Under the pieces are notes generated by a model that was not told the origin of the DNA, made no database searches, and was given only the letters and a program-made list of their open reading frames with translations. A program made the translations under genes and the position numbers. Of a stretch of DNA of 64,000 bases, positions 1-20,835 are shown in pieces. Each line of letters begins with the position of its first letter. Position 1 is the stretch's first letter. The stretch is from an uncultured Candidatus Saccharibacteria bacterium (GTDB lineage: Bacteria; Patescibacteriota; Minisyncoccia; Phycocordibacterales; UBA2100): contig CAYNRJ010000001.1 in assembly GCA_964399865.1 (NCBI GenBank), positions 2,315-66,314 of the forward strand, in the 5' to 3' direction.

Positions 1-3000
1 CGAAATGCATACTTTGCCGGAAGCGTCGGTATCGGTACTACATCTCCTGCGTATGCCCTCGATATAGCGGGATTTATAAACATTAATGAATATTCTGGAT
101 ACAAACAGAACGGTTCGACGATCCTCTTCGCCACAACGACAACAGGTCTTCTAGGGGTAGGCATCAATGCTCTTGCCAGCGCGATCTCAACTTCGACAGA
201 TGCCACTTCCGCTACGTACAGTGTAGCGGTTGGTGAGAACGCGCTTCGCTACGCGACCTCTTCAGACTTTAATACTGCCGTGGGCTGGAGCGCACTTCGA
301 GGGAGTTCTAGTGCTACGGCTAATAACTCTGGTGAACGTAATGTTGCTGTTGGATATGACTCGCTTCTTGCAAATACAACGGGCTCTCGAAACGTAGCGT
401 CAGGGTTTACCTCAATGTTGAACAATACGACAGGTTCAGACAATGTTGCTATCGGAAATGGTGCGCTCATGATTGCTACAAGTTCTTCTAATAACATAGC
501 TATTGGCACAGAGGCTCTTATTTCTCTGAGGACAAGCTCGGTCAACGATCTAGAGGGGAGTATAGCGATAGGATATGACGCTGGCGCAAGCGTAGTCTAC
601 GGAGGTGCAAACATCTTCATCGGTCATCTCGCTGGAGATAATCTCACCGGGGGCAGCAACAATATTATTATGGGGTATAGCATTGATGCTCCTTCAGCAA
701 CTCTTAGTGGCCAGCTCAATATTGGCAATATAATCTTTGGTACAGGCGTTGATTCAACAGGTACGACAATCGATACAAACGCACTTATAGGCATCGGGAC
801 ATCGACACCATGGGGTCGTTTGTCGGTCACTAATGTCGGAACAGAGCCATCTTTTGTTGTTCAGGACGAAGCCTCGCCAGACAACAGTCCGTTTATCATC
901 GACGCCACGGGGAACGTCGGAATCGGCACCACTTCTCCGTTCGCAAAACTCTCCGTCGTCGGTCAAACCGTAGGTGAATACTTCACCGCAACATCTACGG
1001 CTCGTGTATCTACGTTCCCATACGCATCAACCACCGCTATTACTGTTTCTGGTACCGCATCCTCTACATTACTTGTTGTCTCCGGTCTCAATGCAGCAGA
1101 CTGTGACGTGAAGGCGAGTGTGAACGGAGTCTTTTCTTGTGGCACTGACGCAGGAGGTGCCGGCGCGTCTCTCCAGGGTTCCTATGATGCAGGAGATACG
1201 ATTGAGACATCGGATGCAAACCCGATCGTTATTACCGAAACAGCCGCTGCGGCAAGTTCGCACAATCTGCTTGAGCTCGCTCCGAATCCGGCAGCTGGGG
1301 GCACGTTCTCCGGTAGCGCTCTGCAGATAACGATGGACGCAACTGACGCGAATGCGTATGCCGGTAATGGTCTCCGCATCGTCGTCGATCAATCACAAGT
1401 CGCATCGACGGCATACCCAATTCTTATTGAGGATGATGCTGGTGTAGACATATTCGCAGTTGCAGAGAACGGCGGACTCACCATCAACGGCGCGAATAGT
1501 GACGTCGTGCGCAGTTCGACCGCAGATTTCGCGCTCGGCACTGTCGGAGCAGGGCTCTCGAATGCAAATGGTCAGCTAAGTATGTCGAATGGAACAGTGC
1601 TGACCTCTAGCAACGGCATCATTACGACAGGGAGTCAGCCATCCGTGGATGCAGCCGTAAGCACCGGTGCACTTTCGATCGCAATTGCGAACGGGAAATA
1701 TCTAGTCATACGTGGAGGTGGAACGAATGCGATGTCTATTTATGATTCTGTAGCAGGCACGTTCACTGCTTCTTCGAGAACCTTGAACGGAACAGCTGGC
1801 GGTGGAACGCTCGCACTACCTCGTCCAGGAGGTACATACCGCATTCTTCATGGAAGCGGCTCACAGACGACCACGACTCTCATTGATCCTCAGGGGAATA
1901 TGTACCTCGGGTTTGGAACAACTACGGCCATGAACGCAGCCGTCGCGACTGGCACCGTCGCGTTTAGGCGACCTGACGGAAGATTCTTGATCGCAAACGG
2001 ACAAGGTGCCGGCACGACTCAGATTTATGATCCAATCGGTGATGTGTTCGTCGCAGGTCCTACGAACAGCGGTGGTGTCACTTGGGGCGCGGGAGCACTC
2101 GTCATCCCTATGGCCTCAAGTACGAGCGGAATCAGTTCAAGAGCACTATTTGTAACAGGGGGTGCGGCCGGCACAACTCAGATTTATAACAGCAGTGACG
2201 GTTCGGTATCAGGCATTGGTCCTCGCGGCTCATTCACTGTTGGACCACCGCTCGGTACGGGATGTGAAATAAACAACTGGGGTTCCGTAGCGATTGGGCG
2301 ACCAGACGGTAAATATGTGATTCTCTCCAAGATAAATGCCTCAGCGGTCTTCGATCCGATATTGGGTACGATGACGTGCCGCACATCTAACGGTCCTGGT
2401 GTCGCACTCGGTGTCGGCGCGCATGCGATTCCCCTCCAGAACGGTACTTTCCTCATCATCGTTGGTAGTGGTTCGACCGCATCGTATATTTACAATCCAA
2501 ATACCGACACGTTTACTTCACACGGGACCGCTCTCTCTGTCATCGGTGATGGCGCGCACTCTATTCTGAGGCAGGATGGCACATGGCAGATTCTCGCCGG
2601 AGGTACAACTACTCCAACAACCACAAATAATTTCGACACTGGTCTCCCAATGGCAGGCTCTGCTACGCGCTACACCTCAGATGATATTTCAACGACTGCT
2701 TTGAATCTCTCGTCAACGCTTAAGTGGGTAGCAGACGCACAAACGGCAATGGTTGGAAACGTAAACGCTACGTCCAGTCTCCAAATACTGGTACGCACGG
2801 CTGTAAATAGTGGCGGCTGTACAGCCCCCCTTGATGCAGCAACTGATAGGGAAATCCGTAACTCAGGAGACTTGATTGGTGCTGGTTCGACCGACAATTG
2901 TATCCGTATTACGGTTAACATGAGTCGACCAATACCAAAACGCATTATAGATGAACGCGGTACATTTACAGGAAACGGCTCAACTGTCACAGCGCTCGAT

Positions 3001-6000
3001 TATTACAACGTAAGTCTCCAGGAGCTCGTCGTCGATAACTCCTCGTTCCTCCGTCGTAACAACTTTGCATTTAATGTGGCAAGCGCTGATGCCGCCGCTC
3101 CACAGAGTGACGCTTCTGGTCCGGTCCTCACGAGAGCTGAAGCTCTTTCGGACAGAGTCTATCTTCCTTGGGGTCGTATTAATCCTACAACAGCGTCAGG
3201 AAGTACAGGATATTACTTTGGTACAACAACAATTGCTCATCCGCCAATTCCGCAAGCGCAGGCAACGACGAGTACAATTGTCATTGAACGGCCTAACAAA
3301 ACGTTCGTGATTATTGCTTCTCTTACGACTCCAGCCGCAAACGCTGCTCTGTATGATCCGAACACGCAGACGTTCACATCTCAGTCTGGAAGTAATATTC
3401 CAACCGCCGCGAATGGTCCTGGAGGCTTTGCGCTGAAACTCCCTAGCGGCAAGTTCCTAGTTGTTCTCGGAAATAATACTGTAACCACGAACTTCTACGA
3501 TCCTATTACGAATACCTTTAGCGCCGGGCCAGATCTTACTGTCGCGGCAAACCTTGGTGCAATCGCGATTCCGAATGCCGATGGAACGTACACCATTACC
3601 CACGGTGCTGGTGCTACAACATCGTCAATATTCGATCCAATACGCTACACGACGCAAAGAATGGCAACTGGCCCTACACAAACAACAGGCACTGCCTGCG
3701 GTGCTGCGGCTATACCGCTTCGTAACGGAAATTACAAGATTATCGTTGGTGCTGCAGACGGGGCAGCTGCAGCAGCAACAACGATGAACTATGATCCGCG
3801 CGCGAAAGTGTTTATTGCAGGTACAAATATGGTTACAAACGCCGTTGGCTGTGGATCGCAGGTCTTCCAAAGGGCAGACGGATTCTGGGAAGTGACTGGC
3901 GGCGGTACGACGTCAGGTGCAGGTACGCTCGTCACCAACATCATTAACCCAGACTCTGGTCAGACATCCATTGGTGCTCCGATGACTACTAACACCGCTG
4001 GAAAGGGTCAACTTCTCATTCCAAGACCTGACGGCACATTCTTACTTATCAGCGGTAACAACACAGTCAACACCAACATCATCATTCCGTATGGTGTCGG
4101 ACCTGCAGCATCTGCGGTCTCAGGCGTATCACAGCTCGGCGTTGCTCCAATTGGTCCTCCGCTTAACTTAGCTGTTGGTAATGGCTCTGTTGCCTTCCAA
4201 AGACCGGATGGTAAATTCGTTATCATTAACGGAAATGCAACAAGCAGCACACAGCTCATTGACGTTGGATGGTATCCGGACGGGCAGTATCTTTCTGAGC
4301 AGATTCAAATTCCTGCGCTCCCAGCAAACGCTGTACTTAACTGGAAGCAGACACCAGATAACTTTGTCTCAATGCGTGTGAGAGTTGCCTCATCACAGGC
4401 AAATCTCGCAACCTCGACATTTATTACTGTCGGGAAGCCTGGAACCAGTATCGCTAATGCGGGTGGCGAGACGTGGGCACAGATAGAAATTAACTTCCGC
4501 CGCGACTTCCCTGCATATAGTGGCGCAAAAGATAGCGTGTATGGAGGTTCCAGCAACAACGTCTATCCGTACCGCAATATCTCAACTCCGTCAGTATTTC
4601 AATTCCAGCTCAGTAATGGCCAGGATCTCCTCACACTCCAGACGAACGGTCGTAATCTGATGCGAGTTACATCTGATGGAAACATCTACTCTGCCGCCAA
4701 CGGTGGATTCTATAGTGGTGGTGCTGACTTGGCGGAAAATTACACTTCCACACAGACGCTCGTTGCTGGTGAGGTCGTGATGATCGATCCATCGAACGCA
4801 CAGGGTGTCATTCGCGCGACTGGTCAGTATCAAAATACGATACTCGGCGTTGTTTCGACTGAGCCAGGCTTCATTGCCGGCGCATTTACTGAAAATTCCT
4901 ACCCAATCGGTCTTATCGGTCGTGTACCTGTGAAGATCTCAACCGAGAATGGCCCAATTCGCTCAGGTGACATCCTCACTTCTGCGTCGATTTCTGGTTA
5001 TGCAATGCGCGCAACACAAGCTGGCCGCTCCCTTGGTAAGGCACTCGAGAATTTCGATGAGAGTACGGCGACCCCATGTCCTGCCGAGGGGCTCGGGAAT
5101 GTCGAATCTACAAAATGCGGAACGATCATGATGTTCGTTAACCTAGTCGATTACCTTGGTTCGCCAATAGAGCTAATGATGGATGAGGCAGGATTCTCAA
5201 TAGACGAGCCAGTACTAGCTTCCGAGGTTTCTGCGGACGAGGACGTACTCGAGGGCCTAGCGCTCGTCGCAGAGGCTCCGTCCGCTGACGAAAAGGCTGC
5301 CGCACGGAGAGCGCGCATACTCGCGTTCCTCCAGAACCTGAAAGAGCAGCGGGGAGCAATGGGCATAAGTTCTGAGATATTCACTGATCGCATTAGTTCT
5401 GCGTTCGAGATTGTCTCGCCACAGCTAACGACGGACACGCTTTCCGCAAATACGATCGCCGGGGTCTCAGGTGGTGTATCAGTCGCACTTGCTACAGGTA
5501 CACAATTCGCGATTATCAATAAAGACGCGTCGGGAAGCGCCTCTTCAACACCAGTAGCATCGTTTGATGCTTCTGGAAACCTATTTATCGGCGGTGATCT
5601 CGTCATTTTTGGTCGACCGTACTTTACAACTGACACTGCGGGCTTTGCTGTCGTGAAGGCGGGGAGTTCAAAAGTTGAAGTTATATTCGACCGAGAATAT
5701 CTCGAGCAGCCAATTGTAAACGCAAACATCTCGCTCGACGCTCTCCCTGACGAAGCGCAAGCGGCTGCTGCTGCGGAAGCAATCTTTTCGGATGATATCC
5801 GTTACCTTGTCACGGAAAAGAGCGCAAAAGGCTTCACGGTGCTTCTCAACAAACCGGCTTCTAAAGACATTCAGTTTAGTTGGATCGCTCTCGCGGTGAA
5901 GGGAGCTAAGACGTTCCAGTCAGCTGCTCCAGAAGGCGTTGATGTCGAAAACCCAGAACTTCCTGTTGAACCACAAGAATCTCCGGTGGAAGAAAACGAG

Positions 6001-6483
6001 GGTGGAGGCGAGTCGGAGCAGTCGGTCGAGGAGGAAATTGCGGAGGAGGAAACAGGGGGCTCTGGAGATGCGCCCCCACAAGTGACGGTGATAGGAGAGA
6101 GTCCTGTACGTATTGAAATAGGAACGGGGTATTCCGATCAGGGGGCGCTCGTTTCCGATGACCATGATACTGGGATCGGTCTCACGACGTTTGTAAACGG
6201 AGCGTTTTCCCTCGCAGTGCAATTGGACACCTCAACAACGACTTCATACGAGATCAAGTATCGCGCAACGGATTCAGCAGGGAACGTGACAGAAAAGACT
6301 CGCATTGTAGAAGTATATGAACCCGAAATACCAGTTTCTGAGGCGCAACCAGAATCTCTACCAGAGCCTGAGTCAGAACCAGCTCCTGAGCCGGAAGTAG
6401 TCGTAGGCTCAGCTCCTCAGTCAGAGTCCGCGGTAGAAGCTGAACCTAGCCCAGAACTTTCCTCTGAAATTGTAGAAGAGTAA
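1..6483 (+). CDS. Giant surface protein, 5'-partial. The frame is open from nt 1 (…YFAGSVGIGTTSPAYALDIAG…), so the gene starts upstream of the window. Mosaic: N-terminal tail-fibre-like G/N/T/S-rich repeats; about 12 repeats of ~45 aa carrying (I/F)YDP motifs (beta-propeller/Kelch-like); an internal phage tail-fibre intramolecular-chaperone / peptidase S74-like domain; a DUF5011-like Ig domain; an acidic P/E-rich tail.
   Basis: No stop codon in frame 1 from nt 1. Repeats such as NVAVGYDSLLANTTGSRNVASGF..DNVAIGNGAL; periodic TQIYDPIGDVF / SYIYNPNTDTFTSHG / ALYDPNTQTFTSQSG / TNFYDPITNTFSAGP / SIFDPIRYTTQ / MNYDPRAKVFIAG; the segment GGADLAENYTSTQTLVAGEVVMIDPS…LGVVSTEPGFIAG…IGRVPVKISTENGPIRSGDILTSASISGYAMRAT; the segment PQVTVIGESPVRIEIGTGYSDQGALVSDDHDTGI…YRATDSAGNVTEKTRIVEVYE; and a C-terminal run PESLPEPESEPAPEPE. 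Confidence 0.75.
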   Translation, partial: RNAYFAGSVGIGTTSPAYALDIAGFININEYSGYKQNGSTILFATTTTGLLGVGINALASAISTSTDATSATYSVAVGENALRYATSSDFNTAVGWSALRGSSSATANNSGERNVAVGYDSLLANTTGSRNVASGFTSMLNNTTGSDNVAIGNGALMIATSSSNNIAIGTEALISLRTSSVNDLEGSIAIGYDAGASVVYGGANIFIGHLAGDNLTGGSNNIIMGYSIDAPSATLSGQLNIGNIIFGTGVDSTGTTIDTNALIGIGTSTPWGRLSVTNVGTEPSFVVQDEASPDNSPFIIDATGNVGIGTTSPFAKLSVVGQTVGEYFTATSTARVSTFPYASTTAITVSGTASSTLLVVSGLNAADCDVKASVNGVFSCGTDAGGAGASLQGSYDAGDTIETSDANPIVITETAAAASSHNLLELAPNPAAGGTFSGSALQITMDATDANAYAGNGLRIVVDQSQVASTAYPILIEDDAGVDIFAVAENGGLTINGANSDVVRSSTADFALGTVGAGLSNANGQLSMSNGTVLTSSNGIITTGSQPSVDAAVSTGALSIAIANGKYLVIRGGGTNAMSIYDSVAGTFTASSRTLNGTAGGGTLALPRPGGTYRILHGSGSQTTTTLIDPQGNMYLGFGTTTAMNAAVATGTVAFRRPDGRFLIANGQGAGTTQIYDPIGDVFVAGPTNSGGVTWGAGALVIPMASSTSGISSRALFVTGGAAGTTQIYNSSDGSVSGIGPRGSFTVGPPLGTGCEINNWGSVAIGRPDGKYVILSKINASAVFDPILGTMTCRTSNGPGVALGVGAHAIPLQNGTFLIIVGSGSTASYIYNPNTDTFTSHGTALSVIGDGAHSILRQDGTWQILAGGTTTPTTTNNFDTGLPMAGSATRYTSDDISTTALNLSSTLKWVADAQTAMVGNVNATSSLQILVRTAVNSGGCTAPLDAATDREIRNSGDLIGAGSTDNCIRITVNMSRPIPKRIIDERGTFTGNGSTVTALDYYNVSLQELVVDNSSFLRRNNFAFNVASADAAAPQSDASGPVLTRAEALSDRVYLPWGRINPTTASGSTGYYFGTTTIAHPPIPQAQATTSTIVIERPNKTFVIIASLTTPAANAALYDPNTQTFTSQSGSNIPTAANGPGGFALKLPSGKFLVVLGNNTVTTNFYDPITNTFSAGPDLTVAANLGAIAIPNADGTYTITHGAGATTSSIFDPIRYTTQRMATGPTQTTGTACGAAAIPLRNGNYKIIVGAADGAAAAATTMNYDPRAKVFIAGTNMVTNAVGCGSQVFQRADGFWEVTGGGTTSGAGTLVTNIINPDSGQTSIGAPMTTNTAGKGQLLIPRPDGTFLLISGNNTVNTNIIIPYGVGPAASAVSGVSQLGVAPIGPPLNLAVGNGSVAFQRPDGKFVIINGNATSSTQLIDVGWYPDGQYLSEQIQIPALPANAVLNWKQTPDNFVSMRVRVASSQANLATSTFITVGKPGTSIANAGGETWAQIEINFRRDFPAYSGAKDSVYGGSSNNVYPYRNISTPSVFQFQLSNGQDLLTLQTNGRNLMRVTSDGNIYSAANGGFYSGGADLAENYTSTQTLVAGEVVMIDPSNAQGVIRATGQYQNTILGVVSTEPGFIAGAFTENSYPIGLIGRVPVKISTENGPIRSGDILTSASISGYAMRATQAGRSLGKALENFDESTATPCPAEGLGNVESTKCGTIMMFVNLVDYLGSPIELMMDEAGFSIDEPVLASEVSADEDVLEGLALVAEAPSADEKAAARRARILAFLQNLKEQRGAMGISSEIFTDRISSAFEIVSPQLTTDTLSANTIAGVSGGVSVALATGTQFAIINKDASGSASSTPVASFDASGNLFIGGDLVIFGRPYFTTDTAGFAVVKAGSSKVEVIFDREYLEQPIVNANISLDALPDEAQAAAAAEAIFSDDIRYLVTEKSAKGFTVLLNKPASKDIQFSWIALAVKGAKTFQSAAPEGVDVENPELPVEPQESPVEENEGGGESEQSVEEEIAEEETGGSGDAPPQVTVIGESPVRIEIGTGYSDQGALVSDDHDTGIGLTTFVNGAFSLAVQLDTSTTTSYEIKYRATDSAGNVTEKTRIVEVYEPEIPVSEAQPESLPEPESEPAPEPEVVVGSAPQSESAVEAEPSPELSSEIVEE

Positions 6484-6504: not shown

Positions 6505-7506
6505 TTATCGATACTGCGAGTCTATTTTTTTATAAACAAATTCTGAAATGTCGGCGACGGCTCTCTCGAGAGTAGGCACTTCTTCGCCCCGAGTCATGAT
6601 GCAGAGAAGGTAGGGGTGTTTGGGATAATAGACTATACCGCAGTCGTGCAAATGACGCTCACCATCGTTGATTTGTCTTTCGCCGAATTTATGAGCTACG
6701 AGAATTTTGTCTGGCACACCCTTACGCAAGCCTTCGGTGAAATCGATTTTCGAAAGTAGCGACAGTGCCTGCTCTGAATGTGCTTGGGAGAGGAATGACG
6801 CGTTATAAAGGATTCTAAAAAAAGCGGCGTATTGTTTTACGGAAAGAGCTGAACTCGGATCGTTTAGTACATTTGCGTCGACATCCAATAGATCGTACAG
6901 GTGTCTAATATCATCTCCTGGGAGATCCGTAAGTAGGAGAAATAACGACTCGTTGTCGGAGTAGATGATCATTCTCTCGATAAGCTCACTTACCGTATAT
7001 GCTTTCCCGACTTCAAGAGTCTCCTCTGGCAAAATCGTTTGCTCGACAGGTGACGCGCGTTTTTCTTGAAATGTAATTTCTTTCTGCAAGATGCTCGGGT
7101 TGTCCTCAGCGGCGCGGAAAAATGCCATCATGACCGGTACCTTCAATAAGCTCGCAGGAATGAATGGATCATCTTGTTGAATACCAAAGGTCGGGCCGTT
7201 GTTCAGGTCACGGAAATATACTGCTATCTCACTCGCGGAAGTTTTTTTCTCTAGAGAGGTTACTAGTTTTTCAAGGTCCGACCGGAAGTTTATTTTTTCT
7301 GCGTCGATCGTTCCTTGTGCAATCTCGCATTCAAGGAGTGGATTGGTAAGCACACCTTCACCTGAGCGGACCTGTGCTGATGTGCTGGAGTGCGGTGTGG
7401 ACTTGTGAAGGTTTGCGTATCCGATCGCTCCGAGGGCTGCTCCGAGCGCAAGCGTTACGGTGAAGGAAAATACCCTACGCATGTGCCACCATGCTAGCAC
7501 AGGCAA
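6505..7506 (-). CDS. Secreted serine hydrolase, class A beta-lactamase / PBP-like. An alternative start at the internal Met (MRRVFSF…, about nt 7482) gives a cleaner signal peptide.
   Basis: N-terminal hydrophobic signal; SxxK (ASLLK), SDN (YSDNES) and a KTG-like (HKFGE) motif in the class A order. Confidence 0.5.
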   Translation of the reverse strand: MPVLAWWHMRRVFSFTVTLALGAALGAIGYANLHKSTPHSSTSAQVRSGEGVLTNPLLECEIAQGTIDAEKINFRSDLEKLVTSLEKKTSASEIAVYFRDLNNGPTFGIQQDDPFIPASLLKVPVMMAFFRAAEDNPSILQKEITFQEKRASPVEQTILPEETLEVGKAYTVSELIERMIIYSDNESLFLLLTDLPGDDIRHLYDLLDVDANVLNDPSSALSVKQYAAFFRILYNASFLSQAHSEQALSLLSKIDFTEGLRKGVPDKILVAHKFGERQINDGERHLHDCGIVYYPKHPYLLCIMTRGEEVPTLERAVADISEFVYKKIDSQYR

Positions 7507-7551: not shown

Positions 7552-8037
7552 ATGCCCGTGAAAACGTGCTTTAATTACAGCGATATAGAGCGAGCTATTG
7601 ATTTTTTTATTATGCCAACCCCAAGCGTTTCGGTCCCATGGATGAATTCAAAAATTGTCATCGCTATTCTAGTTTTTCTACTAGTTGGGGCTGGTGGGGC
7701 AGCATATTACTTTTACTCAAAGGCATCGGTTGTGCAGACAGAATCACAGGAAGACACGCAAAAAGAAGTTCAATCACTTATTGATGAAATAGGGAAGTTA
7801 ATCATGCTTCCTGAAGGTGAGACGCCGACAATTGCAACGGTTTCTAACCCAGAGCGTCTCAAGGATCAACCTTTTTTCGCCAAGGCAAAAGCGGGAGATA
7901 AAGTTCTCATTTATACGATAGCGAGGAAAGCGTTTTTGTATGATCCTGTCGCAGGAAAACTCATAGAAGTCGCACCTCTTAGTACGGCCACGGGCGCTGA
8001 AGTGGAGACAGATGTTTCAGGAGCGATTTCTGAGTAA
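7552..8037 (+). CDS. Hypothetical single-pass membrane protein; the likely true start is the internal Met near nt 7642 (MNSKIVIAILVFLLVGAGG…).
   Basis: ORF with one N-terminal TM helix followed by a soluble domain. No recognisable motif. Confidence 0.4.
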   Translation: MPVKTCFNYSDIERAIDFFIMPTPSVSVPWMNSKIVIAILVFLLVGAGGAAYYFYSKASVVQTESQEDTQKEVQSLIDEIGKLIMLPEGETPTIATVSNPERLKDQPFFAKAKAGDKVLIYTIARKAFLYDPVAGKLIEVAPLSTATGAEVETDVSGAISE

Positions 8038-8060: not shown

Positions 8061-9401
8061 ATGGCATACCGAACAAACACTATAGCGATCGGTATTATGC
8101 TGGGACTATTTTTTCTGTTTTCTTCCGTTTCTCTTGCGGATGAATTTACTTCCGGTGATTATAAAATAGTCGATCCCGTCATCGTGCCGTCGGGATTCGC
8201 GACGTCTTCTAGCTTTCAGTTGTGGAGCACCATCTCTGAATTAGCAACAGGAACAAGCACGGCGACAACGTTTTCTCTAAGTTCCGGATTTCTTACATTC
8301 CCATTCGTCTCTACCCCGGTAGTTTCTGCAACTGCTGGTGACGCTCAAGTATCAATTTCGTGGAGCGCTTCGGAAGGATTCCTCGGATGGAGTATATCGG
8401 GGTATGACATCGCTCGGGCCACGGTTTCTGGCGGTCCATACACATACTCAGATGTTGGAAATGTTCTTAGTAGTACAAGAACCGGCCTCACTAATGGGAC
8501 CACGTACTATTTTGTTGTCGTTCCGAAGGATATATTTGGGAATAGAATCGCCACTTCGACAGAAGTATCCGCGACGCCGGTTGCATCAAGTGGGGGCGGA
8601 GGTGGTGGTGGAGGAGGTGGTGGCGGGGGCGGTGGAGGAGGCGGTGGAGCAGCAGCGCCGTCCGGTGCGAATGTATTCTTTTCAGGACGCGCGTATCCTG
8701 GAAGTACCGTAGTTCTCCTTAAGGACGCGCAGGTGGCCGCTACAACTGTTGCAGGAGCAGATGCGAAATTCCAAATCGCCCTCGGAGGGCTTTCAACCGG
8801 GAACTTTATATTCTCAATGTATGGTGAAGATAAAGCTGGCAATCGCTCCTCGCTCCTGTCGTTTCCGGTGAGCGTAACAGCCAATGTGTTTACGAATGTC
8901 GGTGGTATTTTCATTTCACCATCGATTACAACTGACAAGGCTGAGGTGAGAAAAGGAGACAATATAGCAATCTTCGGACAATCATCGCCAAAGTCAGACA
9001 TAGTCATCGCGGTGAACTCTGAAGAAGAATTATTCGCGCAGGTAAAGGCGGATGATAGTGGAGCGTATCTCCTAAATTTTGACACATCGGTTCTCGAGAT
9101 GGGAAGTCACACAGCAAAATCAAAGGCGGCATTGGCAGGGGAGATAAGTACATACAGCAAAGCTGCCGCGTTTACCGTAGGAACAAAAAATGTGGTTGCT
9201 CTCGTTACTACGAAGAAAGCCACAAAGGGTGACGCAAGTGGAGACGGAAAAGTGAACCTCGTAGATTTTTCAGTTGCTGCCTATTGGTATAAACGCCCGC
9301 TCACCCCAGCCTTTAGGGAAATCGAGAAGACGATGCTCAACGGCGACGGACAAGTAACACTCGCTGACTTCTCCATCATAGCCTATCACTGGGGAGGATG
9401 A
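8061..9401 (+). CDS. Secreted dockerin-containing protein: signal peptide, FN3 domain, 20-residue poly-Gly linker, two Ig-like / CarboxypepD_reg-like domains, C-terminal type I dockerin (two Ca-binding F-hand repeats).
   Basis: FN3 signature (QVSISWSAS…LTNGTTYYFVV). Dockerin repeats GDASGDGKVNLVDFSVAAYWY and LNGDGQVTLADFSIIAYHW at the C-terminus. Confidence 0.7.
   Translation: MAYRTNTIAIGIMLGLFFLFSSVSLADEFTSGDYKIVDPVIVPSGFATSSSFQLWSTISELATGTSTATTFSLSSGFLTFPFVSTPVVSATAGDAQVSISWSASEGFLGWSISGYDIARATVSGGPYTYSDVGNVLSSTRTGLTNGTTYYFVVVPKDIFGNRIATSTEVSATPVASSGGGGGGGGGGGGGGGGGGGAAAPSGANVFFSGRAYPGSTVVLLKDAQVAATTVAGADAKFQIALGGLSTGNFIFSMYGEDKAGNRSSLLSFPVSVTANVFTNVGGIFISPSITTDKAEVRKGDNIAIFGQSSPKSDIVIAVNSEEELFAQVKADDSGAYLLNFDTSVLEMGSHTAKSKAALAGEISTYSKAAAFTVGTKNVVALVTTKKATKGDASGDGKVNLVDFSVAAYWYKRPLTPAFREIEKTMLNGDGQVTLADFSIIAYHWGG
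8592..8651 (+). repeat. GGN trinucleotide tract encoding 20 consecutive glycines (low-complexity, slippage-prone coding repeat).
   Basis: ggg ggc gga ggt ggt ggt gga gga ggt ggt ggc ggg ggc ggt gga gga ggc ggt gga read directly; translates to G20 inside the dockerin-protein ORF. Confidence 0.9.
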
Positions 9402-10324
9402 TATTGAGTATGCAGATAACAACAAAAAAAATTAGTATGTACGGATTGCTCTCTCTGCTCGTTGGCGTTTTGTACGTCTTAAGTATGACGGATGTTTACG
9501 CAGCAGAAATCATCGCTAGAACTCCGTCCGGAGTCGGCGTGGGAGATGCATTTACTGTCTCGGTTTTGCTCGACACAGAAGATGAGCGCATCAATGCTTT
9601 AGAGGGAACTCTCCAGTACACACGCTCTACACTCGTGCTCCGAGAATTGCGCACGGGTAATTCGATCGTTAATTTCTGGGTTGAGCAACCTAGTATAGAT
9701 AAACCTGGGTCCGTACGCTTTGCAGGGGTAACTCCGGGAGGCTTTCATGGAAATGAGGGAGAGATCTTTACTCTCGTATTTGAAGCGGTTAAAAGCGGTC
9801 GGGCGGAGATATCTCTTCAAGATGGAAAAGCGTATAGAAATACTGACGATGGAATTGCCTTCCCGCTCGTAGCTCGCATCCCCGCGTTTGCAATTAGCGA
9901 AAAGGGAGGAGGGATGTCGGTGCAGTCAATTTTAGAAACTGACAAGACACCACCTGAGTCCTTTACTCCCATGATTGCCACGGATCAATCTCTTTTTGAG
10001 GGGCGATCATTTATCGTTTTTGCAACGCAAGATAAAGGATCAAGTGTCGATCATTATGAAGTAGCAGAGCGCAAAGGATTTCCGTTTGCCCTCTTACGAA
10101 AAATGGTTTGGCAAAAAGCGGTGAGCCCGTTCGTGCTCTCTGATCAGTCGCGTATGTCATATGTATACGTGAAAGCTGTCGACAAAGCGGGAAATGAGCG
10201 CATCGCGCGGTTATCCCCTTCGCATCAATTTTTCTACTTTAGTAACACAGCGCTTATCGCTATACTTCTTGTATTGTTCGGCTCGGTGTTACTTTTTTAT
10301 GTACGAAAACGCAAGATTCGGTAG
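9398..10324 (+). CDS. Type I membrane protein with an extracellular cohesin-like domain (signal peptide, cohesin, C-terminal TM anchor); start ATGA-overlaps the upstream stop.
   Basis: AEIIARTPSGVGVGDAFTVSVLLDTEDERINALEGTLQYTRSTLVL…GSVRFAGVTPGG…EIFTLVFEAVKSGRAEISL matches the cohesin pattern. C-terminal hydrophobic helix ALIAILLVLFGSVLLFYV followed by RKRKIR. Confidence 0.6.
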   Translation: MILSMQITTKKISMYGLLSLLVGVLYVLSMTDVYAAEIIARTPSGVGVGDAFTVSVLLDTEDERINALEGTLQYTRSTLVLRELRTGNSIVNFWVEQPSIDKPGSVRFAGVTPGGFHGNEGEIFTLVFEAVKSGRAEISLQDGKAYRNTDDGIAFPLVARIPAFAISEKGGGMSVQSILETDKTPPESFTPMIATDQSLFEGRSFIVFATQDKGSSVDHYEVAERKGFPFALLRKMVWQKAVSPFVLSDQSRMSYVYVKAVDKAGNERIARLSPSHQFFYFSNTALIAILLVLFGSVLLFYVRKRKIR

Positions 10325-11513
10325 GCTGTTAGGGTATGTAAGCATAGGATTTGTCGCGAGCCTATGTTTTTTTATATCTGCAGGGGTGACACACGCTGCG
10401 ACTCTCTCGCTTTCACCATCATCCGGCTCATATTCGGCCGGAGATACTCTGACAGTATCAATCCTAGTTTCGAGTACGGATCAAGCCATCAATGCTGCGT
10501 CTGGTACCATACATTTTCCCGAAGATGTATTGCAGGTACTCTCCATCTCTAAAGCGAATTCAATTTTGACCCTATGGGTACAAGAGCCTTCCTTTTCCAA
10601 TACTTCTGGCACGGTAGATTTTGCCGGCGTAGTGCCCAATCCAGGCTATACCGGTAGTGGAGGTAATCTCATAACCGTACGCTTCCGTGCTCGTTCTCCG
10701 GGTACTGCAAACCTTACAATTTCACCTGCCGAGACGCTTGCAAACGACGGCAGCGGCACGAATGTATTAGCCGGTGCTTCTGGTGCAACGATCACGATTA
10801 CTTCGGCAAAGGCAACCATACAAGATTCACAAAGGCCACCTGCTGAAGATCTGGAGGAATCGGCAGAGGAAGTTGAGTCTGACACCGGTATACAACCACC
10901 GATTATAACGAGCTCAACGAAACGTGTCCCCCTCGGAGGGGCAGCTGAAGTAACAGGTTCTTCTATTTATCCTGGTGCTACGGCGGAGCTTACACTTCAG
11001 GGTTCTGGCGGTATTATTCTCACGGTTAACGGTTCCGTCGGAGAGAACGGGGTATTTTCTCTAACCCAACAGCATTCCATAATTCCAGGTGAGTACATTG
11101 GATCAGTGGTTGTCCATCAGGGCAATGCCCAAAGCTCTCCCTCTGAGCCGTTCGTCATAACGTTTGAAGGGGAGCCATTCCTTTCAAAAGCGCTCGATTT
11201 TCTGATGCAGCCGATGCTTCTTATCACGTATGGCTTTATAGCGGCATTCGGGATAGGACTTGTGCTCGGCAGATACTTCTTTAGGTCGAAAAAACTTACC
11301 GTGAACGATGCCCTCTATGATGTAGATGTTGAGGTGCATAAATCGTTCCTCAAGCTTCGCGAACGTATTAATCAGTCAATTGCAGAATTACAGCGAGAGA
11401 GTGAAAATCGTGAACTCACCGATGCGGAAGCGCGATTCATTAAGCAAATGACGGGAACCATTAAAGATACCGAGAAGGCAGTCGAGAAAGATATACACCA
11501 GGCCGAGCATTAA
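10299..11513 (+). CDS. Second cohesin-domain type I membrane protein (signal peptide, cohesin, Ig-like region, TM, charged coiled-coil cytoplasmic tail). Start chosen at ATG 10299 (MYENARFGRLLGYV…); the ORF track extends upstream to 10194.
   Basis: AATLSLSPSSGSYSAGDTLTVSILVSSTDQAINAASGTIHFPEDVLQVLSISKANS…GTVDFAGVVPNPGYTGSGGNLITVRFRARSPGTANLTI is paralogous to the upstream cohesin. TM LLITYGFIAAFGIGLVLG; C-terminal E/K-rich tail. Confidence 0.6.
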   Translation: MYENARFGRLLGYVSIGFVASLCFFISAGVTHAATLSLSPSSGSYSAGDTLTVSILVSSTDQAINAASGTIHFPEDVLQVLSISKANSILTLWVQEPSFSNTSGTVDFAGVVPNPGYTGSGGNLITVRFRARSPGTANLTISPAETLANDGSGTNVLAGASGATITITSAKATIQDSQRPPAEDLEESAEEVESDTGIQPPIITSSTKRVPLGGAAEVTGSSIYPGATAELTLQGSGGIILTVNGSVGENGVFSLTQQHSIIPGEYIGSVVVHQGNAQSSPSEPFVITFEGEPFLSKALDFLMQPMLLITYGFIAAFGIGLVLGRYFFRSKKLTVNDALYDVDVEVHKSFLKLRERINQSIAELQRESENRELTDAEARFIKQMTGTIKDTEKAVEKDIHQAEH

Positions 11514-12058: not shown

Positions 12059-12640
12059 ATGTACAGTTTATACATGATAAAAAACGTTTACATTCCCACG
12101 ATACTCATCACGGTCTTCCTCACAATTGCCGGAGGAGTGTGGTGGTGGTACCTAGGATCTCCTTCGCTTGACGAATTGAAAGCGCGCATACGTACCCCGA
12201 TCGCACGTGAAGAAGAGACGCCTGCCGCAGAGACGTCGCAAGTTTTCGTTGCGTTCTTGGATACCGCAGGAACGACAAACGGAAAGGAGAGGGGTTGCGA
12301 CAAGGTGGTTATGGTTCCGTATACGATAGATAAGACGAGAGCACCGCTTACGATCGCTCTCTTTATCTTGTTCGATATTGATGAGGAGAACGCCAATGGA
12401 CTCTTCAGCTACATCGCGCGCACGAATGATACACTCGCTTTCGACCGTGCGACCGTGGTAGATGGCACAGCTCATATCTATCTCACGGGATCTCTCACCG
12501 GGCTCGCAGGAGTCTGCGATGATCCACGTGCTGCAATTCAAATTGAGGAGACAGCCCTCCAATTCCCAACGGTGCAGCGAGTGCAGCTATACCTGAACGA
12601 AGAGCCTACAACCCTCATCCCTGACATGCGTGGGGAATAG
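12059..12640 (+). CDS. Signal-anchored protein with a possible GerMN-like domain.
   Basis: N-terminal TM plus AGGVWWWYLGSP. The C-terminal segment TVVDGTAHIYLTGSLTGLAGVCDDPRAAIQIEETALQFPTVQRVQLYLNEEP resembles GerMN (sporulation/germination M) domains; weak. Confidence 0.35.
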   Translation: MYSLYMIKNVYIPTILITVFLTIAGGVWWWYLGSPSLDELKARIRTPIAREEETPAAETSQVFVAFLDTAGTTNGKERGCDKVVMVPYTIDKTRAPLTIALFILFDIDEENANGLFSYIARTNDTLAFDRATVVDGTAHIYLTGSLTGLAGVCDDPRAAIQIEETALQFPTVQRVQLYLNEEPTTLIPDMRGE

Positions 12641-12651
12641 TATCTACAAGT

Positions 12652-13047
12652 ATGAAAACAACACGAGAAAAACTAGCTGACCTGTTTGGGTTCGGGTTCG
12701 CGCTGTGGCTCTTCGGATTTGTCCTCGGTATGATGCTGTTCTCTATCGTTCCAACAGCATATCTCGGTCTTGTCATTACACCGTTCGCGTTTGCCGCCGC
12801 TCTCTGGGTTTGTCTGAGACGTTTTCGAGGGAGAGGTGATAGTGGCTTGTACCTTCTCTCTGTGGGCGCTGTATGGCTCTTTATCGCCGTTTCGTTCGAC
12901 TACATATTTCTTGTAAGAGCGTTTTCTGTGGCGAATTATTACGATTTTGATGTGTTTTTGTATTATTTCATTACATTTTTCCTCCCTATTGCGGTGGGGC
13001 GAAGAAATACACAGAGTGCGCCTATACAAGCAGAAGAGGGTATATAG
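12652..13047 (+). CDS. Hypothetical polytopic membrane protein (3-4 TM).
   Basis: Hydrophobic helices, no motif. Confidence 0.4.
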   Translation: MKTTREKLADLFGFGFALWLFGFVLGMMLFSIVPTAYLGLVITPFAFAAALWVCLRRFRGRGDSGLYLLSVGAVWLFIAVSFDYIFLVRAFSVANYYDFDVFLYYFITFFLPIAVGRRNTQSAPIQAEEGI

Positions 13048-14871: not shown

Positions 14872-14898
14872 CCACAACACAGTGTGGGGGATTTTTTG
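14872..14898 (+). terminator. Hairpin (ccacaacac…gtgtgg) plus a T6 run; it terminates the upstream operon and overlaps the ORF-track GTG start at 14884, which argues for the downstream ATG start of the GH18 gene.
   Basis: ccacaacacagtgtgggggattttttg. Confidence 0.4.
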
Positions 14899-14931
14899 TA
14901 TGATTTTCGCGACTGGTTCGTCGTATATACT

Positions 14932-16389
14932 ATGAGTAACATGAAAACGCAGGTATTACGTGGTTTTGTAGCGGCGATGGCGGTAGTTCTTGCTACTCCG
15001 CAAGCGGTTTTTGCACAGACAGCGCCTTTTGAGGTTTCGGGTTGGATACCGTATTGGCGAGCTGATAAGGGTGTAGAAAGTATCCTTCCGCACCTAGGGA
15101 AATTCACGGAAGTGAATCCTTTCGTCTATACCGTAAAACAAGATGGCTCGTTATTTCTCCCCGAACCTTTGGATACAGGTGCATGGGCCACGCTTCGTGC
15201 GAAATCAAAAGAGCTGAATGTACGATTCATGCCGACAGTGATGTGGGCGAACGCGGACGCAATCCACGACGTTCTTAGTAACCCCGAGAAGCGTGCTGAA
15301 CACATCCGCGGCATTGTAAGTCAGGTGTATGGCCGAGGATTTGAAGGTATCGATATCGATTATGAAGGCAAATACGCCAAAACTCGTCCATACTTTTCCC
15401 TGTTCTTGAAAGAACTTAGTACCGCGATGGGCTTCGATAAATGGATCATGTGTACGATAGAAGCGCGCACACCGCTTGACTCGCGTTACTCGTCACCGGA
15501 ATCTATTCCAAAGGACATTGAATATGCGAACGATTTTGTGGAGATAAACAAGTACTGTGATCAGGTGCGCGTTATGGCGTATGACCAGGGTAGGTATGAC
15601 TTGAAACTTAATGATGCGAACACTGATCCGTACATACCGGTCGCCGACAGTAAGTGGGTTGAGAAAGTGATGCGACTGACGATGCAAGATATTGATAAAA
15701 ATAAACTCCTTATCGGTGTTGCAACATATGGATATGAATACGATATGTTCCCCTCGACAGACGGCAGCGGAGATATGTCTTACTCTCGCTTGTGGTCGTT
15801 CAATCCCGGATATGTCGCAGAAACCGCAACAAAAACAGGTATTGCTCCTATACGTAATTCCGCCGGTGAAATGTCACTCGTATATCCTGCGTCTCAGTCT
15901 GTAGATCCCGCCATACCGCTCCCGAACGCCACACGTGTCATGACATGGAGCGATGCGGAAGCCATTCGTCAAAAAGCTGAGCTTGCAAAAACGCTCGGAC
16001 TTGCCGGTATCGCGATATTTAAAATTGACGGAGGACAAGATCCAAAACTCTGGGATGTGCTTGCGAGCTATAAGGGGGACACCTCAAATGCGAGCGCAGT
16101 TCGCACGGCGCCATCGCCTGCAAGCGGGCTTATTGCATCGTCACTTATTGTGCCAGCAGTCGATCTTCAGTTTGGCGCGCGACGAGAAGAGGTGCGAGCT
16201 CTCCAAAAAATCCTCAATGCCAGTGGGCATATTATAGCGACGACAGGCGGTGGGTCACCTGGTAACGAAACCACATACTTTGGACCTGCGACACGAGCTG
16301 CACTTATCAAATTCCAGAAGGCAAAAAATATTACCCCTGCTGTCGGATACTTTGGTCCAAAAACTCGCGCAGCCTTTGCCTCGCTCTAA
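14932..16389 (+). CDS. Secreted GH18 (chitinase-like) glycoside hydrolase with a C-terminal peptidoglycan-binding (PG_binding_1-like) domain.
   Basis: Signal peptide MSNMKTQVLRGFVAAMAVVLATPQAVFAQ. GH18 catalytic motif FEGIDIDYEG (DxxDxDxE). C-terminal LQKILNASGHI…TYFGPATRAALIKFQKAKNI…GYFGPKTRAAF. Confidence 0.7.
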   Translation: MSNMKTQVLRGFVAAMAVVLATPQAVFAQTAPFEVSGWIPYWRADKGVESILPHLGKFTEVNPFVYTVKQDGSLFLPEPLDTGAWATLRAKSKELNVRFMPTVMWANADAIHDVLSNPEKRAEHIRGIVSQVYGRGFEGIDIDYEGKYAKTRPYFSLFLKELSTAMGFDKWIMCTIEARTPLDSRYSSPESIPKDIEYANDFVEINKYCDQVRVMAYDQGRYDLKLNDANTDPYIPVADSKWVEKVMRLTMQDIDKNKLLIGVATYGYEYDMFPSTDGSGDMSYSRLWSFNPGYVAETATKTGIAPIRNSAGEMSLVYPASQSVDPAIPLPNATRVMTWSDAEAIRQKAELAKTLGLAGIAIFKIDGGQDPKLWDVLASYKGDTSNASAVRTAPSPASGLIASSLIVPAVDLQFGARREEVRALQKILNASGHIIATTGGGSPGNETTYFGPATRAALIKFQKAKNITPAVGYFGPKTRAAFASL

Positions 16390-16445
16390 GCTATCCAGAG
16401 TGTCTTCATGAAAAACGCGTAAAACGCGTGTAGTACTATAGGCAT

Positions 16446-17645
16446 ATGGATCTAGAGAAGGCCGCACACGAAGTATTTTTGAAAAATCGACGGAATATAA
16501 ACGGCCATCACTACACTCTTCCTTCCTCTGATCACTACCCGTATCAATGGCTTTGGGATTCTTGCTTTCATGCAATTGTACTCGCGCGCACAGAGCCGCA
16601 GATAGCACGGGAAGAAATACAGGCACTTCTATCACGCCAATTCGAGAACGGACTTGTTCCACACATTATCTATTGGACTCCAGGCATCCTTCATCTGTTT
16701 AGGTGGGGGACTGAAGGCACGAGCTCACTTACGCAGCCCCCGATGCTCGCGTACGCGGTATGGGAAATACATACGAAATCTCCCGATATGCCCTTCTTGG
16801 AGTCGGTGTTCCCAGCACTTCTCCGCTACTATAAATTCCTGTTAACGGAACGCGATCCGCGCGGGCATCACCTGGCGGGAATTATTAACCCTGACGAATC
16901 TGGCGAGGATAATTCGCCGCGCTTTGATGAGCCTCTTGGGGCAGGCCCGGATATATCTCTCGATGATCATCTCCAAAAACGGCATGAGCTCGTGGATGAG
17001 AATCGTGTCTGTAAATTTGATGCCGCGACCTGCATGCGATATCACTTCTGGGTCAAAGACGTTCTATTTAATACGGTCTTGGTAGAGAATTTGAGAGCCC
17101 TGGCACGAATTGCTTCTGCGCTCAATCGCGAGGACGAGGCACACTTACTTTATAAAGACGCCAATAGTGTGGCGGCAGCGATGCGCGAGCATATGTTTGA
17201 AGATGGCGTGTACTGGTCCACGAGCGGCGCTGACTTTAAAAAACTTAAAGTGAATACCTGGTCACATTTTGTTCCGATGTTTGCGGGGCTGTACTCAAAG
17301 GAAGAGGCGGAGGATGTTATGCGTACACATTTTCGTAATGACAATACTTTCAAGGCGTCCTTTGGTATTCGTACTGTATCAAAACAGGAACAATCCTACC
17401 GTTCCTCGTCCGCTGTCGATGATTTTTCTTGGCGGGGACCCATATGGTTCGCATCACAGTGGTTTATTTACAAAGGTCTCCAGCGGTACGGATACATTGA
17501 AGATGCTGCATGGATACGGGAAACAAGTATTCGGTTATTGGAGAAATCTGGGTTTCGGGAATGTTTTAACCCGGACACTGGAGTCGGGTATGGTGCACGG
17601 CACTTCACATGGGGTGCATTAATCCTTGATATGATGGAGGAATGA
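16446..17645 (+). CDS. Six-hairpin (alpha/alpha)6 glycoside hydrolase (GH63/GH37/GH15-superfamily-like; possibly a trehalase or mannosylglycerate-hydrolase-type enzyme).
   Basis: HYPYQWLWDSCFHAIVL motif near the N-terminus, typical of (alpha/alpha)6-barrel glycosidases; sits in a sugar-metabolism cluster. Confidence 0.45.
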   Translation: MDLEKAAHEVFLKNRRNINGHHYTLPSSDHYPYQWLWDSCFHAIVLARTEPQIAREEIQALLSRQFENGLVPHIIYWTPGILHLFRWGTEGTSSLTQPPMLAYAVWEIHTKSPDMPFLESVFPALLRYYKFLLTERDPRGHHLAGIINPDESGEDNSPRFDEPLGAGPDISLDDHLQKRHELVDENRVCKFDAATCMRYHFWVKDVLFNTVLVENLRALARIASALNREDEAHLLYKDANSVAAAMREHMFEDGVYWSTSGADFKKLKVNTWSHFVPMFAGLYSKEEAEDVMRTHFRNDNTFKASFGIRTVSKQEQSYRSSSAVDDFSWRGPIWFASQWFIYKGLQRYGYIEDAAWIRETSIRLLEKSGFRECFNPDTGVGYGARHFTWGALILDMMEE

Positions 17646-18442
17646 GTCATATCGCGTTCGATATAGGTGGCACATCTGTGCGAGTCGCTGTCGCGAAGGA
17701 AGATGGATTGGGAGAAGTAAAGAAGCAGCAAACACCGCAATCTCCCCAGGAAGCAGTCGCTCTCATCGCATCCCTTGCTCGCGAACTTTGCGGAGAAGAG
17801 AAAATTGATGCTGCAGCGGGCTGTATTCGCGGCCGCGTCGTCGACGGTGTGTTCCTCAAAGACAAGGGACTTCCAGAATGGGAAGGATTCGAACTTGTAA
17901 AAGAACTATCAAATGCACTCGGTAGCTCAGTGAGTGTCTCTCATGATGCGAGCCTCGCAGCTCTTGGAGAGGCGCGATATGGCGCTGGGGCGGGATCTGA
18001 TATTTGTGTGTTCGTTACGGTTTCGACTGGAGTCGGTGGTGGACGCGTGGTCGCGGGCGAAATGGATCGCACCACTTACAACCCAGAAATCGGGAGACAG
18101 CTTATTAATGGGCAAGAACTCGAGGATCTAGTCTCGGGGAGTGCGGTCCACAAAAAATTTGGCATTCACCCGCGCGAACTGGACTCGGAAGAGGAGCGTA
18201 ACAATCTTGCAGATATTCTTGCGATCGGACTCTACAACACGACGCTCCATTGGTCGCCGGAAACAATCGTTCTGGGAGGTTCAATGATTCTCGGTGTGAA
18301 TCCGATTCCGCTTGAAAGAGTGGAGAAGTCCTTTGTCTCTCGAGTAACAATGTATCCAAAGGCACCGTCCCTTAGAATGGCAAAACTTGGCGATAATGCA
18401 GGCCTGGAAGGTGCCCGCGCCCTACTTTTTAGAGGCAAATAG
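17642..18442 (+). CDS. ROK-family sugar kinase (glucokinase-like).
   Basis: N-terminal IAFDIGGTSVRVAVA motif; ROK-like glycine-rich segments; ATGA overlap with the upstream gene. Confidence 0.65.
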   Translation: MSHIAFDIGGTSVRVAVAKEDGLGEVKKQQTPQSPQEAVALIASLARELCGEEKIDAAAGCIRGRVVDGVFLKDKGLPEWEGFELVKELSNALGSSVSVSHDASLAALGEARYGAGAGSDICVFVTVSTGVGGGRVVAGEMDRTTYNPEIGRQLINGQELEDLVSGSAVHKKFGIHPRELDSEEERNNLADILAIGLYNTTLHWSPETIVLGGSMILGVNPIPLERVEKSFVSRVTMYPKAPSLRMAKLGDNAGLEGARALLFRGK

Positions 18443-18581
18443 TATCCCCGCGTCCATCTTTGAGGAAACCTCGATTTACTGTATAATTGGCTAGTTCTGG
18501 AAATTCGAGAAAAATCCTGATATTTGGCCGTAAAATCCGCCTTTCCCGCATTGAACTGGCAGAAAAAGAGGACAAGCAAAA

Positions 18582-20831: not shown

Positions 20832-20835
20832 TCGC

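Follow-up and report, generated by a model that had tools for sequence, protein, structure and literature searches.

A phylum-wide cohesin-dockerin operon of Patescibacteria, proposed as a dedicated surface anchor

We analysed a 64-kb window of DNA (contig CAYNRJ010000001.1, assembly GCA_964399865.1) from a member of the ultra-small Patescibacteria, or Candidate Phyla Radiation (CPR); all coordinates are given in window positions. The window contains three consecutive genes, here termed gA, gB and gC (the trio), preceded by a small gene for a single-pass transmembrane (TM) protein. A sequence-only reading of this DNA had placed at 8061-9401 a secreted protein with FN3, poly-glycine and immunoglobulin (Ig)-like regions ending in a dockerin, followed at 9398-10324 and 10299-11513 by two paralogous type I membrane proteins with cohesins. 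The three open reading frames (ORFs) are present at these coordinates, and their domains and predicted topology bear out that description. The trio is a phylum-wide, tightly syntenic operon of Patescibacteria/CPR, assembled from parts that belong to known domain families. Its features are the following:

7552-8037, plus strand: small single-pass membrane protein with a conserved C-terminal domain (hydropathy, orthologue comparison)
8061-9401, plus strand: gA, secreted stalk protein of 446 residues (Pfam, profiles, AlphaFold2 model, hydropathy)
8590-8649, plus strand: poly-glycine linker of gA, about 19 glycines, encoded by mixed glycine codons
9222-9398, plus strand: two-repeat dockerin of gA, residues 388-446 (AlphaFold2 model, profile comparison with solved dockerins)
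9398-10324, plus strand: gB, type I membrane protein (paralogy, AlphaFold2 and Foldseek, hydropathy)
10299-11513, plus strand: gC, type I membrane protein (Pfam Cohesin, hydropathy)

The four plus-strand genes are closely packed. The small TM gene stops at 8037, 23 nucleotides before the gA start at 8061, the gA stop and the gB start share an ATGA (9398/9401), and gB and gC overlap by 26 nucleotides (10299/10324). Because the genes abut or overlap and no convincing internal promoter or terminator was found within the four, they look like one operon, of which the small TM gene is the probable first member. The start of the small TM gene is uncertain (7552, 7613 or 7641), gB has an alternative start at 9410 that is used by a database entry, and the gC start at 10299 is identical to that of database protein P0001. 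The small TM protein shows a single hydrophobic segment (residues 25-56) by hydropathy, matched no Pfam family, and is 56% identical to its orthologue in the related locus L005. Its gene lies directly 5' of gA in L005, L021, L023, L029, L032, L048, L057, L092 and L093. An antisense ORF at 8507-9085 (minus strand, 192 residues, with a poly-proline run) mirrors the poly-glycine tract of gA and is not a gene.

The gA protein consists of a signal peptide (residues 1-26), an N-terminal domain (N-domain, residues 27-85), an FN3 domain (about 86-175), the poly-glycine linker, two Ig-like domains (about 203-374) and the C-terminal dockerin. Its only hydrophobic segment is N-terminal, consistent with the signal peptide. 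Pfam assigns Big_6 (E=5.5e-8) and, weakly, fn3 (E=0.053). In the AlphaFold2 (AF2) model, the dockerin forms three helices with a predicted local distance difference test (pLDDT) score of 82-92, and the FN3 domain scores about 85. The full-length model is poor overall (mean pLDDT 59.8), residues 21-83 of the N-domain fall below 35, and a fold search with the model returned generic FN3/Ig arrays only. The N-domain (8139-8315) carries three SSxFxL-like motifs and the invariant residues S31, P39, F77 and P81; conserved yet modelled as disordered, it may fold only on a partner. The length of the poly-glycine tract differs among orthologues. A role of this tract as a sortase acceptor was considered and dropped, the tract being internal in the long form of gA (described below) and absent in L009. 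More than 1300 homologues of gA were matched, and the best 120 listed are 52-65% identical and mostly about 420-470 residues long.

A dockerin is defined here by two tandem segments of about 22 residues, each made up of a 12-residue calcium loop (D or N at positions 1, 3, 5, 9 and 12) and a helix. The consensus of the gA family contains both segments, with the loops D-L-N-x-D-x-R-V-N-L-V-D and D-L-N-G-D-G-K-V-D-L-V-D, each followed by a helix. Among 57 aligned dockerins from related loci, D-x-N-x-D-x-x-x-N/D-x-x-D is kept in both loops, and the two helices are nearly identical (VNLVDFSIAAYWYKR and VDLVDFSIMAYYWTG). The loops of the window copy are DASGDGKVNLVD and MLNGDGQVTLAD, again with a helix after each. 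Dockerin_1 (PF00404) was matched in 19 of 22 gA orthologues (E<0.01, best 3.9e-9) and Big_6 in 20 of 22; furthermore, many gA orthologues in the databases carry a precomputed PF00404 match. Profile positions of about 383-442 in the gA family align with solved dockerins across both repeats (2y3n_B at 1.1e-5, 2yik, 4fl4, 5nrm_B, 1daq, 2mte and 1clc), and the same profile also matches FN3 domains (titin; 3mpc at 3.7e-6). A pair of cysteines flanks the first calcium loop at profile positions 4 and 14 in some members: 28 of the 57 dockerins have both, 29 have neither and none has one alone. As the two always occur together, a disulfide is suggested; the dockerin of the window copy is without the pair.

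The gB protein comprises a signal peptide, a cohesin (residues 36-167), an FN3/Ig-like domain (186-272), a TM helix at residues 283-305, or 277-305 by hydropathy, and a short basic tail. The gC protein is composed of a signal peptide, a cohesin (33-165), one Ig-like domain (about 197-290), a TM helix at 304-325, or 301-325 by hydropathy, and a cytoplasmic tail (331-404). The two are paralogues, with 35% identity over 106 residues (E=3e-18). Pfam Cohesin (PF00963) is matched by gC itself, at 25.2 bits against a cut-off of 24.1 (E=2e-5), and by 4 of 22 gB orthologues (best 1.5e-8). The AF2 model of gB (pLDDT 87.8) adopts the nine-stranded jelly-roll fold of a cohesin, and a Foldseek comparison with the PDB returned cohesins as 20 of its 21 top matches. 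The best of these is 2w1n, the cohesin and FN3 double module of Clostridium perfringens GH84C (E=1.6e-9); the target template-modelling score reaches 0.81 (2vo8 cohesin), at 11-17% identity in the structural matches. Since profiles of gB and gC found no cohesin among PDB sequences, the cohesin identity rests on fold comparison together with Pfam. Four motifs are invariant in the cohesins of both proteins. Three of them fall in predicted strands (INAxxG in 3, WVxxP in 5, FxGxxP in 6) and the fourth, NDGxGT, falls in the loop that follows strand 8; we take these residues to lie on the 8-3-6-5 face that binds the dockerin in type I complexes.

The charged cytoplasmic tail of gC, already pointed out from the sequence alone, is real and conserved throughout the family. 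It is helical and spans 74 residues, of which 13 are K/R and 16 are D/E, with the consensus HKAF..LRE.I...LEK...KR.LT.EE...EK.I.KEI. A hidden Markov model (HMM) of the tail matched only genes in the gC position, apart from one isolated match in L034 just 3' of a tail-less gC ORF.

Related loci were retrieved from metagenomes with a gB profile (80 loci), and their ORFs were scanned with HMMs for the dockerin, both cohesin types, the gC tail and the gA N-domain. This approach was used instead of a scan of genome contigs with a gA profile, which yielded only three loci and was dominated by the poly-glycine pattern. Of the loci whose upstream flank reaches 1.2 kb or more, all 52 have a dockerin ORF directly 5' of gB; of those whose downstream flank does, all 47 have a gC-type cohesin ORF 3' of gB. 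As it recurs in every related locus with enough flank, the order of the trio is far beyond chance. The same order is found in a metagenome-assembled genome (MAG) of Saccharibacteria (L008), in another Patescibacteria MAG (L009), in Parcubacteria Gr01-1014_13 (L005) and on the long contigs L091-L094. Named homologues of all three proteins are nearly all from Patescibacteria, the groups being Parcubacteria, Magasanik-, Portnoy-, Sung-, Taylor-, Uhr-, Nealson- and Buchananbacteria, and Peribacteraceae. Some are already labelled 'cohesin domain-containing' or 'dockerin type I repeat-containing' by NCBI.

Several loci depart from the basic arrangement. An additional cohesin gene is present in L020, L023, L025, L028, L044, L048, L093 and L094. 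The one in L048 (9980-10852) is gB-like, with a cohesin and an FN3-like domain, and carries a single dockerin repeat (GDGKVNLVDFSIVAFYWTG) in place of the TM helix; it may be a recombinant or adaptor form. In L050 (2995-5616), gB and gC form one ORF of 873 residues with the order cohesin-FN3-TM-cohesin-Ig-TM-tail, either a natural fusion or an assembly error. A second, divergent set in L065 (10553-17036) encodes a 1455-residue adhesin with MBG/YDG repeats, a 449-residue poly-glycine protein with a divergent dockerin and a 259-residue cohesin-TM protein. The combination of a big adhesin, a dockerin adaptor and a membrane cohesin may thus be a wider CPR theme. Type IV pilus genes (PilM, T2SSE ATPases) are located a few kb 3' of the trio in L093 (16355-21395), and in L007 (19315-19710) such genes lie near a lone gC-type cohesin gene that occurs without gA or gB.

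The distribution of the dockerin indicates how its cohesins may be used. The 64-residue gA dockerin was searched against 1.84 billion representative proteins and gave 1038 matches at E<=1e-3, 214 of them at E<=1e-10. Nearly all top single-stretch matches are situated at the C-terminus or a few residues from it. The dockerin-bearing matches that look full-length are mostly about 250-525 residues long and represent the gA family, and many shorter ones look like fragments. The other matches fall on large, unrelated proteins that contain 5-12 weak repeats of about 30% identity. Judged by this search, the gA-type dockerin appears essentially confined to the gA family. Since it occurs almost only on gA, at the C-terminus, the cohesins appear to serve one dedicated partner and not exchangeable cargos, and the 'modular display' proposed from the sequence alone is not supported. 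The claim of a self-contained, non-cellulosomal set fared better: the window contains exactly one dockerin, on gA, and two cohesins, and no enzyme carries a dockerin. No scaffoldin with several cohesins and a carbohydrate-binding module (CBM) was found, gB and gC having one cohesin each and no CBM; no dockerin occurs on a glycoside hydrolase or other carbohydrate-active enzyme in the window; and no catalytic domain was found in gA. This pattern argues for a putative complex of fixed composition, in which a single dockerin protein is joined by two cohesin proteins, and not for a cellulosome or a general display system.

Upstream of the operon, two further genes are present, both of which had been pointed out before and are confirmed here:

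1-6483, plus strand: giant surface protein; tail-spike-like repeats at the N-terminus, conserved module at the C-terminus, Bact_surface_Ig-like domain
6505-7506, minus strand: Beta-lactamase2-family (class A beta-lactamase-like) protein (Pfam PF13354, E=5.5e-38)

The giant protein is longer than 2160 residues, because frame 1 is open from base 1 and is cut by the left window edge; the GTG start at 280 in the ORF list is an artefact of the listing rule. Pfam finds Bact_surface_Ig-like (5.8e-10), and the N-terminal repeats, and only these, match the PHROG tail-spike family phrog_4636 (E=7.5e-22). Peptidase_S74 was not detected by Pfam in the window protein and is recorded for its homologues in L092 and L093. 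The giant homologues resemble one another mainly in the C-terminal module (36-54% identity), the rest having diverged. One weak, partial cohesin-like match was seen in a large protein of L081.

The gA family occurs in two forms. The short form, to which the Saccharibacteria copy belongs, has about 300-360 residues and consists of a signal peptide, an optional poly-glycine tract, two Ig domains and the dockerin, with Ig-Ig-dockerin as the minimal arrangement. The long form of about 440 residues, represented by the window copy, adds the conserved N-domain, the FN3 domain and the poly-glycine linker. A homologue of the giant protein is encoded 5' of long-form gA in 12 of the 14 loci with enough upstream sequence (the window, L005, L021, L029, L032, L042, L048, L057 and L091-L094; the exceptions are L023 and L025), so that the giant fibre-like neighbour is a conserved feature. 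A frequent order is giant protein, Beta-lactamase2, small TM protein, gA, gB, gC, and in L091 the 3020-residue giant gene overlaps the gA start. The Beta-lactamase2 gene is a frequent neighbour of the cluster and is found on the operon strand, between the giant and small TM genes, in L005, L021, L048 and L093; its opposite orientation in the window, compared with these relatives, looks like a local inversion. Short-form loci often have other large, unannotated surface proteins 5', some with MBG/YDG or Kelch repeats. Those 5' of the short-form trios in L008 (2421-6458), L009 (1-6519) and L079 (3253-6420) have in common a conserved C-terminal domain of about 160 residues (35-41% identity); this domain and the C-terminal module of the giant protein in the window are unrelated.

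On the 3' side, the operon is followed by a Germane-domain protein (12059-12640) and a 131-residue multi-pass membrane protein (12652-13047), both kept only in the closest relatives (L001, L002). Further downstream, a sugar-related cluster (14884-21597) encodes a GH18 protein with PG_binding_1, an MGH1/GH63-like hydrolase, a ROK kinase, a GT20 (trehalose-6-phosphate-synthase-like) protein with a long N-terminal extension and an inositol-monophosphatase-family protein. None of these carries a dockerin.

We postulate, with a probability of roughly 55%, that the small TM gene, gA, gB and gC build a dedicated non-covalent surface anchor in the Patescibacteria (CPR) cell. In this arrangement, gB and gC would reside in the cytoplasmic membrane as type I proteins, holding their cohesins outside the cell. 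Secreted gA would insert its two-repeat dockerin, which probably carries Ca2+, into the cohesin of one of these two proteins or of both. Docked in this manner, gA would be held non-covalently, and its stalk of Ig-Ig, poly-glycine, FN3 and N-domain would project outward from the membrane like beads on a string. The putative binding is suggested by the strict co-inheritance and adjacency of the genes, by the conserved dockerin helices and by the invariant residues common to both cohesins; its dependence on Ca2+ is presumed. With a nearly symmetric dockerin and exactly two conserved cohesin paralogues, binding could be of the alternative (dual-mode) kind or take the form of a simultaneous 1:2 clamp. 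In the clade to which this genome belongs, the extra distal portion of gA would most likely be joined to the giant tail-spike-like fibre encoded just 5', or organise it. The complex would thereby anchor a long surface appendage on the cell side, plausibly for attachment, and gC would link it to the conserved cytoplasmic helical tail, through which signalling is conceivable. With regard to biological role, we favour fibre or adhesion anchoring over envelope structure; adhesion to a host and inward signalling through the gC tail are both speculation.

A bolder version of this proposal, which we consider rather unlikely in its full detail, makes the trio the socket of a giant CPR appendage resembling a phage tail fibre. 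A gB-gA-gC heterotrimer would form in which both cohesins clamp the dockerin helices at once, the gA N-domain would hold the fibre, and the gC tail would couple it, mechanically or as a signal, to the cell interior. If true, this would constitute a previously undescribed attachment organelle for the episymbiotic lifestyle.

A number of observations weigh against the proposed anchor. At the level of single proteins, the window's gA reaches only 18.0 bits for Dockerin_1 (E=0.0034; cut-off 22.9) with one repeat aligned, and its second calcium loop is degenerate (M at position 1, T at position 9), the first (DASGDGKVNLVD) being intact. The gB protein has no Pfam match of its own and no cohesin match at the sequence level. 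With respect to the fibre, no significant cohesin, dockerin or gA-N-domain motif was found in the giant proteins by HMM, and gA is much more conserved than the giant protein (57% identity compared with a mostly unalignable sequence). Such conservation fits a housekeeping part of the envelope better than a host-specific adhesin. Moreover, short-form gA occurs in many lineages without the window's giant protein, and fibre anchoring is therefore not its ancestral or universal role.

These points lead to the most serious competing explanation, in which the trio would belong to the core architecture of the envelope, for instance as a strut across the wall or as an organiser of the S-layer or wall, with no direct role in host adhesion or fibres and with the adjacency of the giant gene being secondary. 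The contacts between cohesin and dockerin would then serve only to put together a housekeeping structure. We regard it as the less probable account, though one to be taken seriously in view of the strong conservation of the trio and the lack of the distal domains in the ancestral short form. The phylum-wide conservation and fixed gene order agree with it, as does the minimal Ig-Ig-dockerin form, and the 52-65% identity of gA among the best 120 homologues listed is at least as compatible with a core function in the envelope as with host-specific adhesion. The neighbourhood includes envelope-related proteins (Beta-lactamase2, the Germane-domain protein, GH18 with PG_binding_1), and the conserved gC tail suggests coupling to an intracellular partner. 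Against it stand the giant tail-spike-like protein that accompanies long-form gA in 12 of 14 loci and the large surface proteins that also lie 5' of many short-form loci. It is also conceivable, if improbable, that the cohesin-like and dockerin-like domains are not mutual partners, the dockerin acting as a Ca2+-binding stabiliser and the jelly rolls binding glycan, peptidoglycan or a host protein. Non-cellulosomal cohesin- or dockerin-like modules of unknown partner are widespread, according to Peer et al. 2009 as cited in PMC9012536 and PMC10066038, and gB and gC are far from characterised cohesins, with no sequence match in the PDB and identities of 11-17% in the structural comparison. Nevertheless, independence of the two domain types is hard to reconcile with the genetic linkage, that is, with the strict 1:1:1 co-occurrence and adjacency in more than 50 loci; both dockerin helices and the cohesin positions in strands 3, 5 and 6 are conserved, and archaeal non-cellulosomal pairs have been shown to bind, as cited in PMC9012536.

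Two other origins are effectively excluded. For a prophage or phage-derived tail-fibre cassette, which we think very improbable, one may point to the match of the giant protein's N-terminal repeats to a PHROG tail-spike family and to Peptidase_S74 on its homologues. Against this, PHROG and PADLOC scans gave no match for gA, gB, gC or the small TM protein, and the other genes of the window are those of an ordinary chromosome (BipA, a P-type ATPase, trehalose-related genes, GH18 with a peptidoglycan-binding domain, one tRNA). The trio is, furthermore, syntenic in many CPR genomes beside housekeeping genes, among them Mur ligases, Obg and S-AdoMet synthetase. A miniature cellulosome-like display of carbohydrate-active enzymes, the least credible of the explanations, would account for the presence of cohesin and dockerin domains and for the GH18, GH63-like and other sugar-metabolism genes 3-9 kb downstream. 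It conflicts with the lack of a multi-cohesin scaffoldin and of any enzyme with a dockerin, the single dockerin of the window residing on gA, which has no catalytic domain, and with the confinement of this dockerin type to gA-like proteins.

Patescibacteria/CPR account for a large share of bacterial diversity, and the cultivated ones live attached to other cells. To our knowledge, very little is known about how their envelope and attachment structures are built. The proposed trio complex would offer a concrete component of the CPR surface that can be tested, and its short form is present in Saccharibacteria, some of which are cultivable and genetically manipulable. With it, the range of cohesin-dockerin systems would widen from variable ones that organise enzymes to a conserved anchor with a dedicated structural role, and a small, highly conserved Ca2+-dependent pair could serve as an orthogonal tag for protein assembly. 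We found no description of this operon in open-access papers and preprints on dockerin or cohesin together with CPR, Patescibacteria, Parcubacteria or Saccharibacteria. Neither the conserved membrane-anchored system of three genes nor its association with giant fibre-like proteins in CPR appears to have been described.

The only CPR dockerin found in that literature is SEML1_0315 of the saccharibacterium Southlakia epibionticum, a dockerin-domain envelope protein that is reported to be essential by transposon sequencing (Wang et al. 2023, PMC10633639). Like gA, it is a CPR surface protein that combines Ig/FN3-type domains with a dockerin. Unlike gA, it has 927 residues, and the neighbours of its gene are a tRNA gene and a hydrolase gene, not cohesin genes; it was rejected as a gA orthologue on these grounds. 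Trio orthologues in Southlakia were not located by cohesin-type fold names in the supplements of PMC10633639.

Compared with the type I anchoring scaffoldins of cellulosomes in Clostridia and Ruminococcus, the trio has a similar jelly-roll cohesin and a similar two-repeat dockerin with EF-hand-like calcium loops. In both cases, a cell-bound cohesin protein holds, or in the trio would hold, a secreted dockerin protein. Structurally, gB is best matched by cohesins of cellulosomes and by the cohesin modules on glycoside hydrolases of C. perfringens, and the gA profile matches cellulosomal dockerins. In contrast to a cellulosome, the trio has one dedicated dockerin protein and no multi-cohesin scaffoldin, CBM or dockerin-bearing enzymes. 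Its cohesins are anchored by their own TM helix and not by SLH domains or sortase, and its host is a CPR bacterium with a contig of roughly 0.6 Mb. The non-cellulosomal modules of C. perfringens (GH84C 2w1n; 2vo8; 2jh2) resemble the trio in having single cohesins, and the top structural match, 2w1n, has the same two-domain arrangement of cohesin and FN3 as gB. They are appended to secreted enzymes or toxins, which they link, whereas the trio is without an enzyme and its cohesins are integral membrane proteins.

Cohesin and dockerin modules outside cellulosomes occur in all domains of life (Peer et al. 2009, as cited in PMC9012536 and PMC10066038). Those of archaea, in Archaeoglobus fulgidus and in anaerobic methanotrophic (ANME) archaea (PMC9012536), are similar to the trio in that their hosts do not degrade cellulose. 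Roles in surface assembly or cell-cell interaction have been proposed for such modules, and the number and architecture of these proteins are described as varying highly between close relatives (PMC9012536). The CPR trio, by contrast, is a three-gene operon of fixed order whose sequences are strongly conserved across the phylum.

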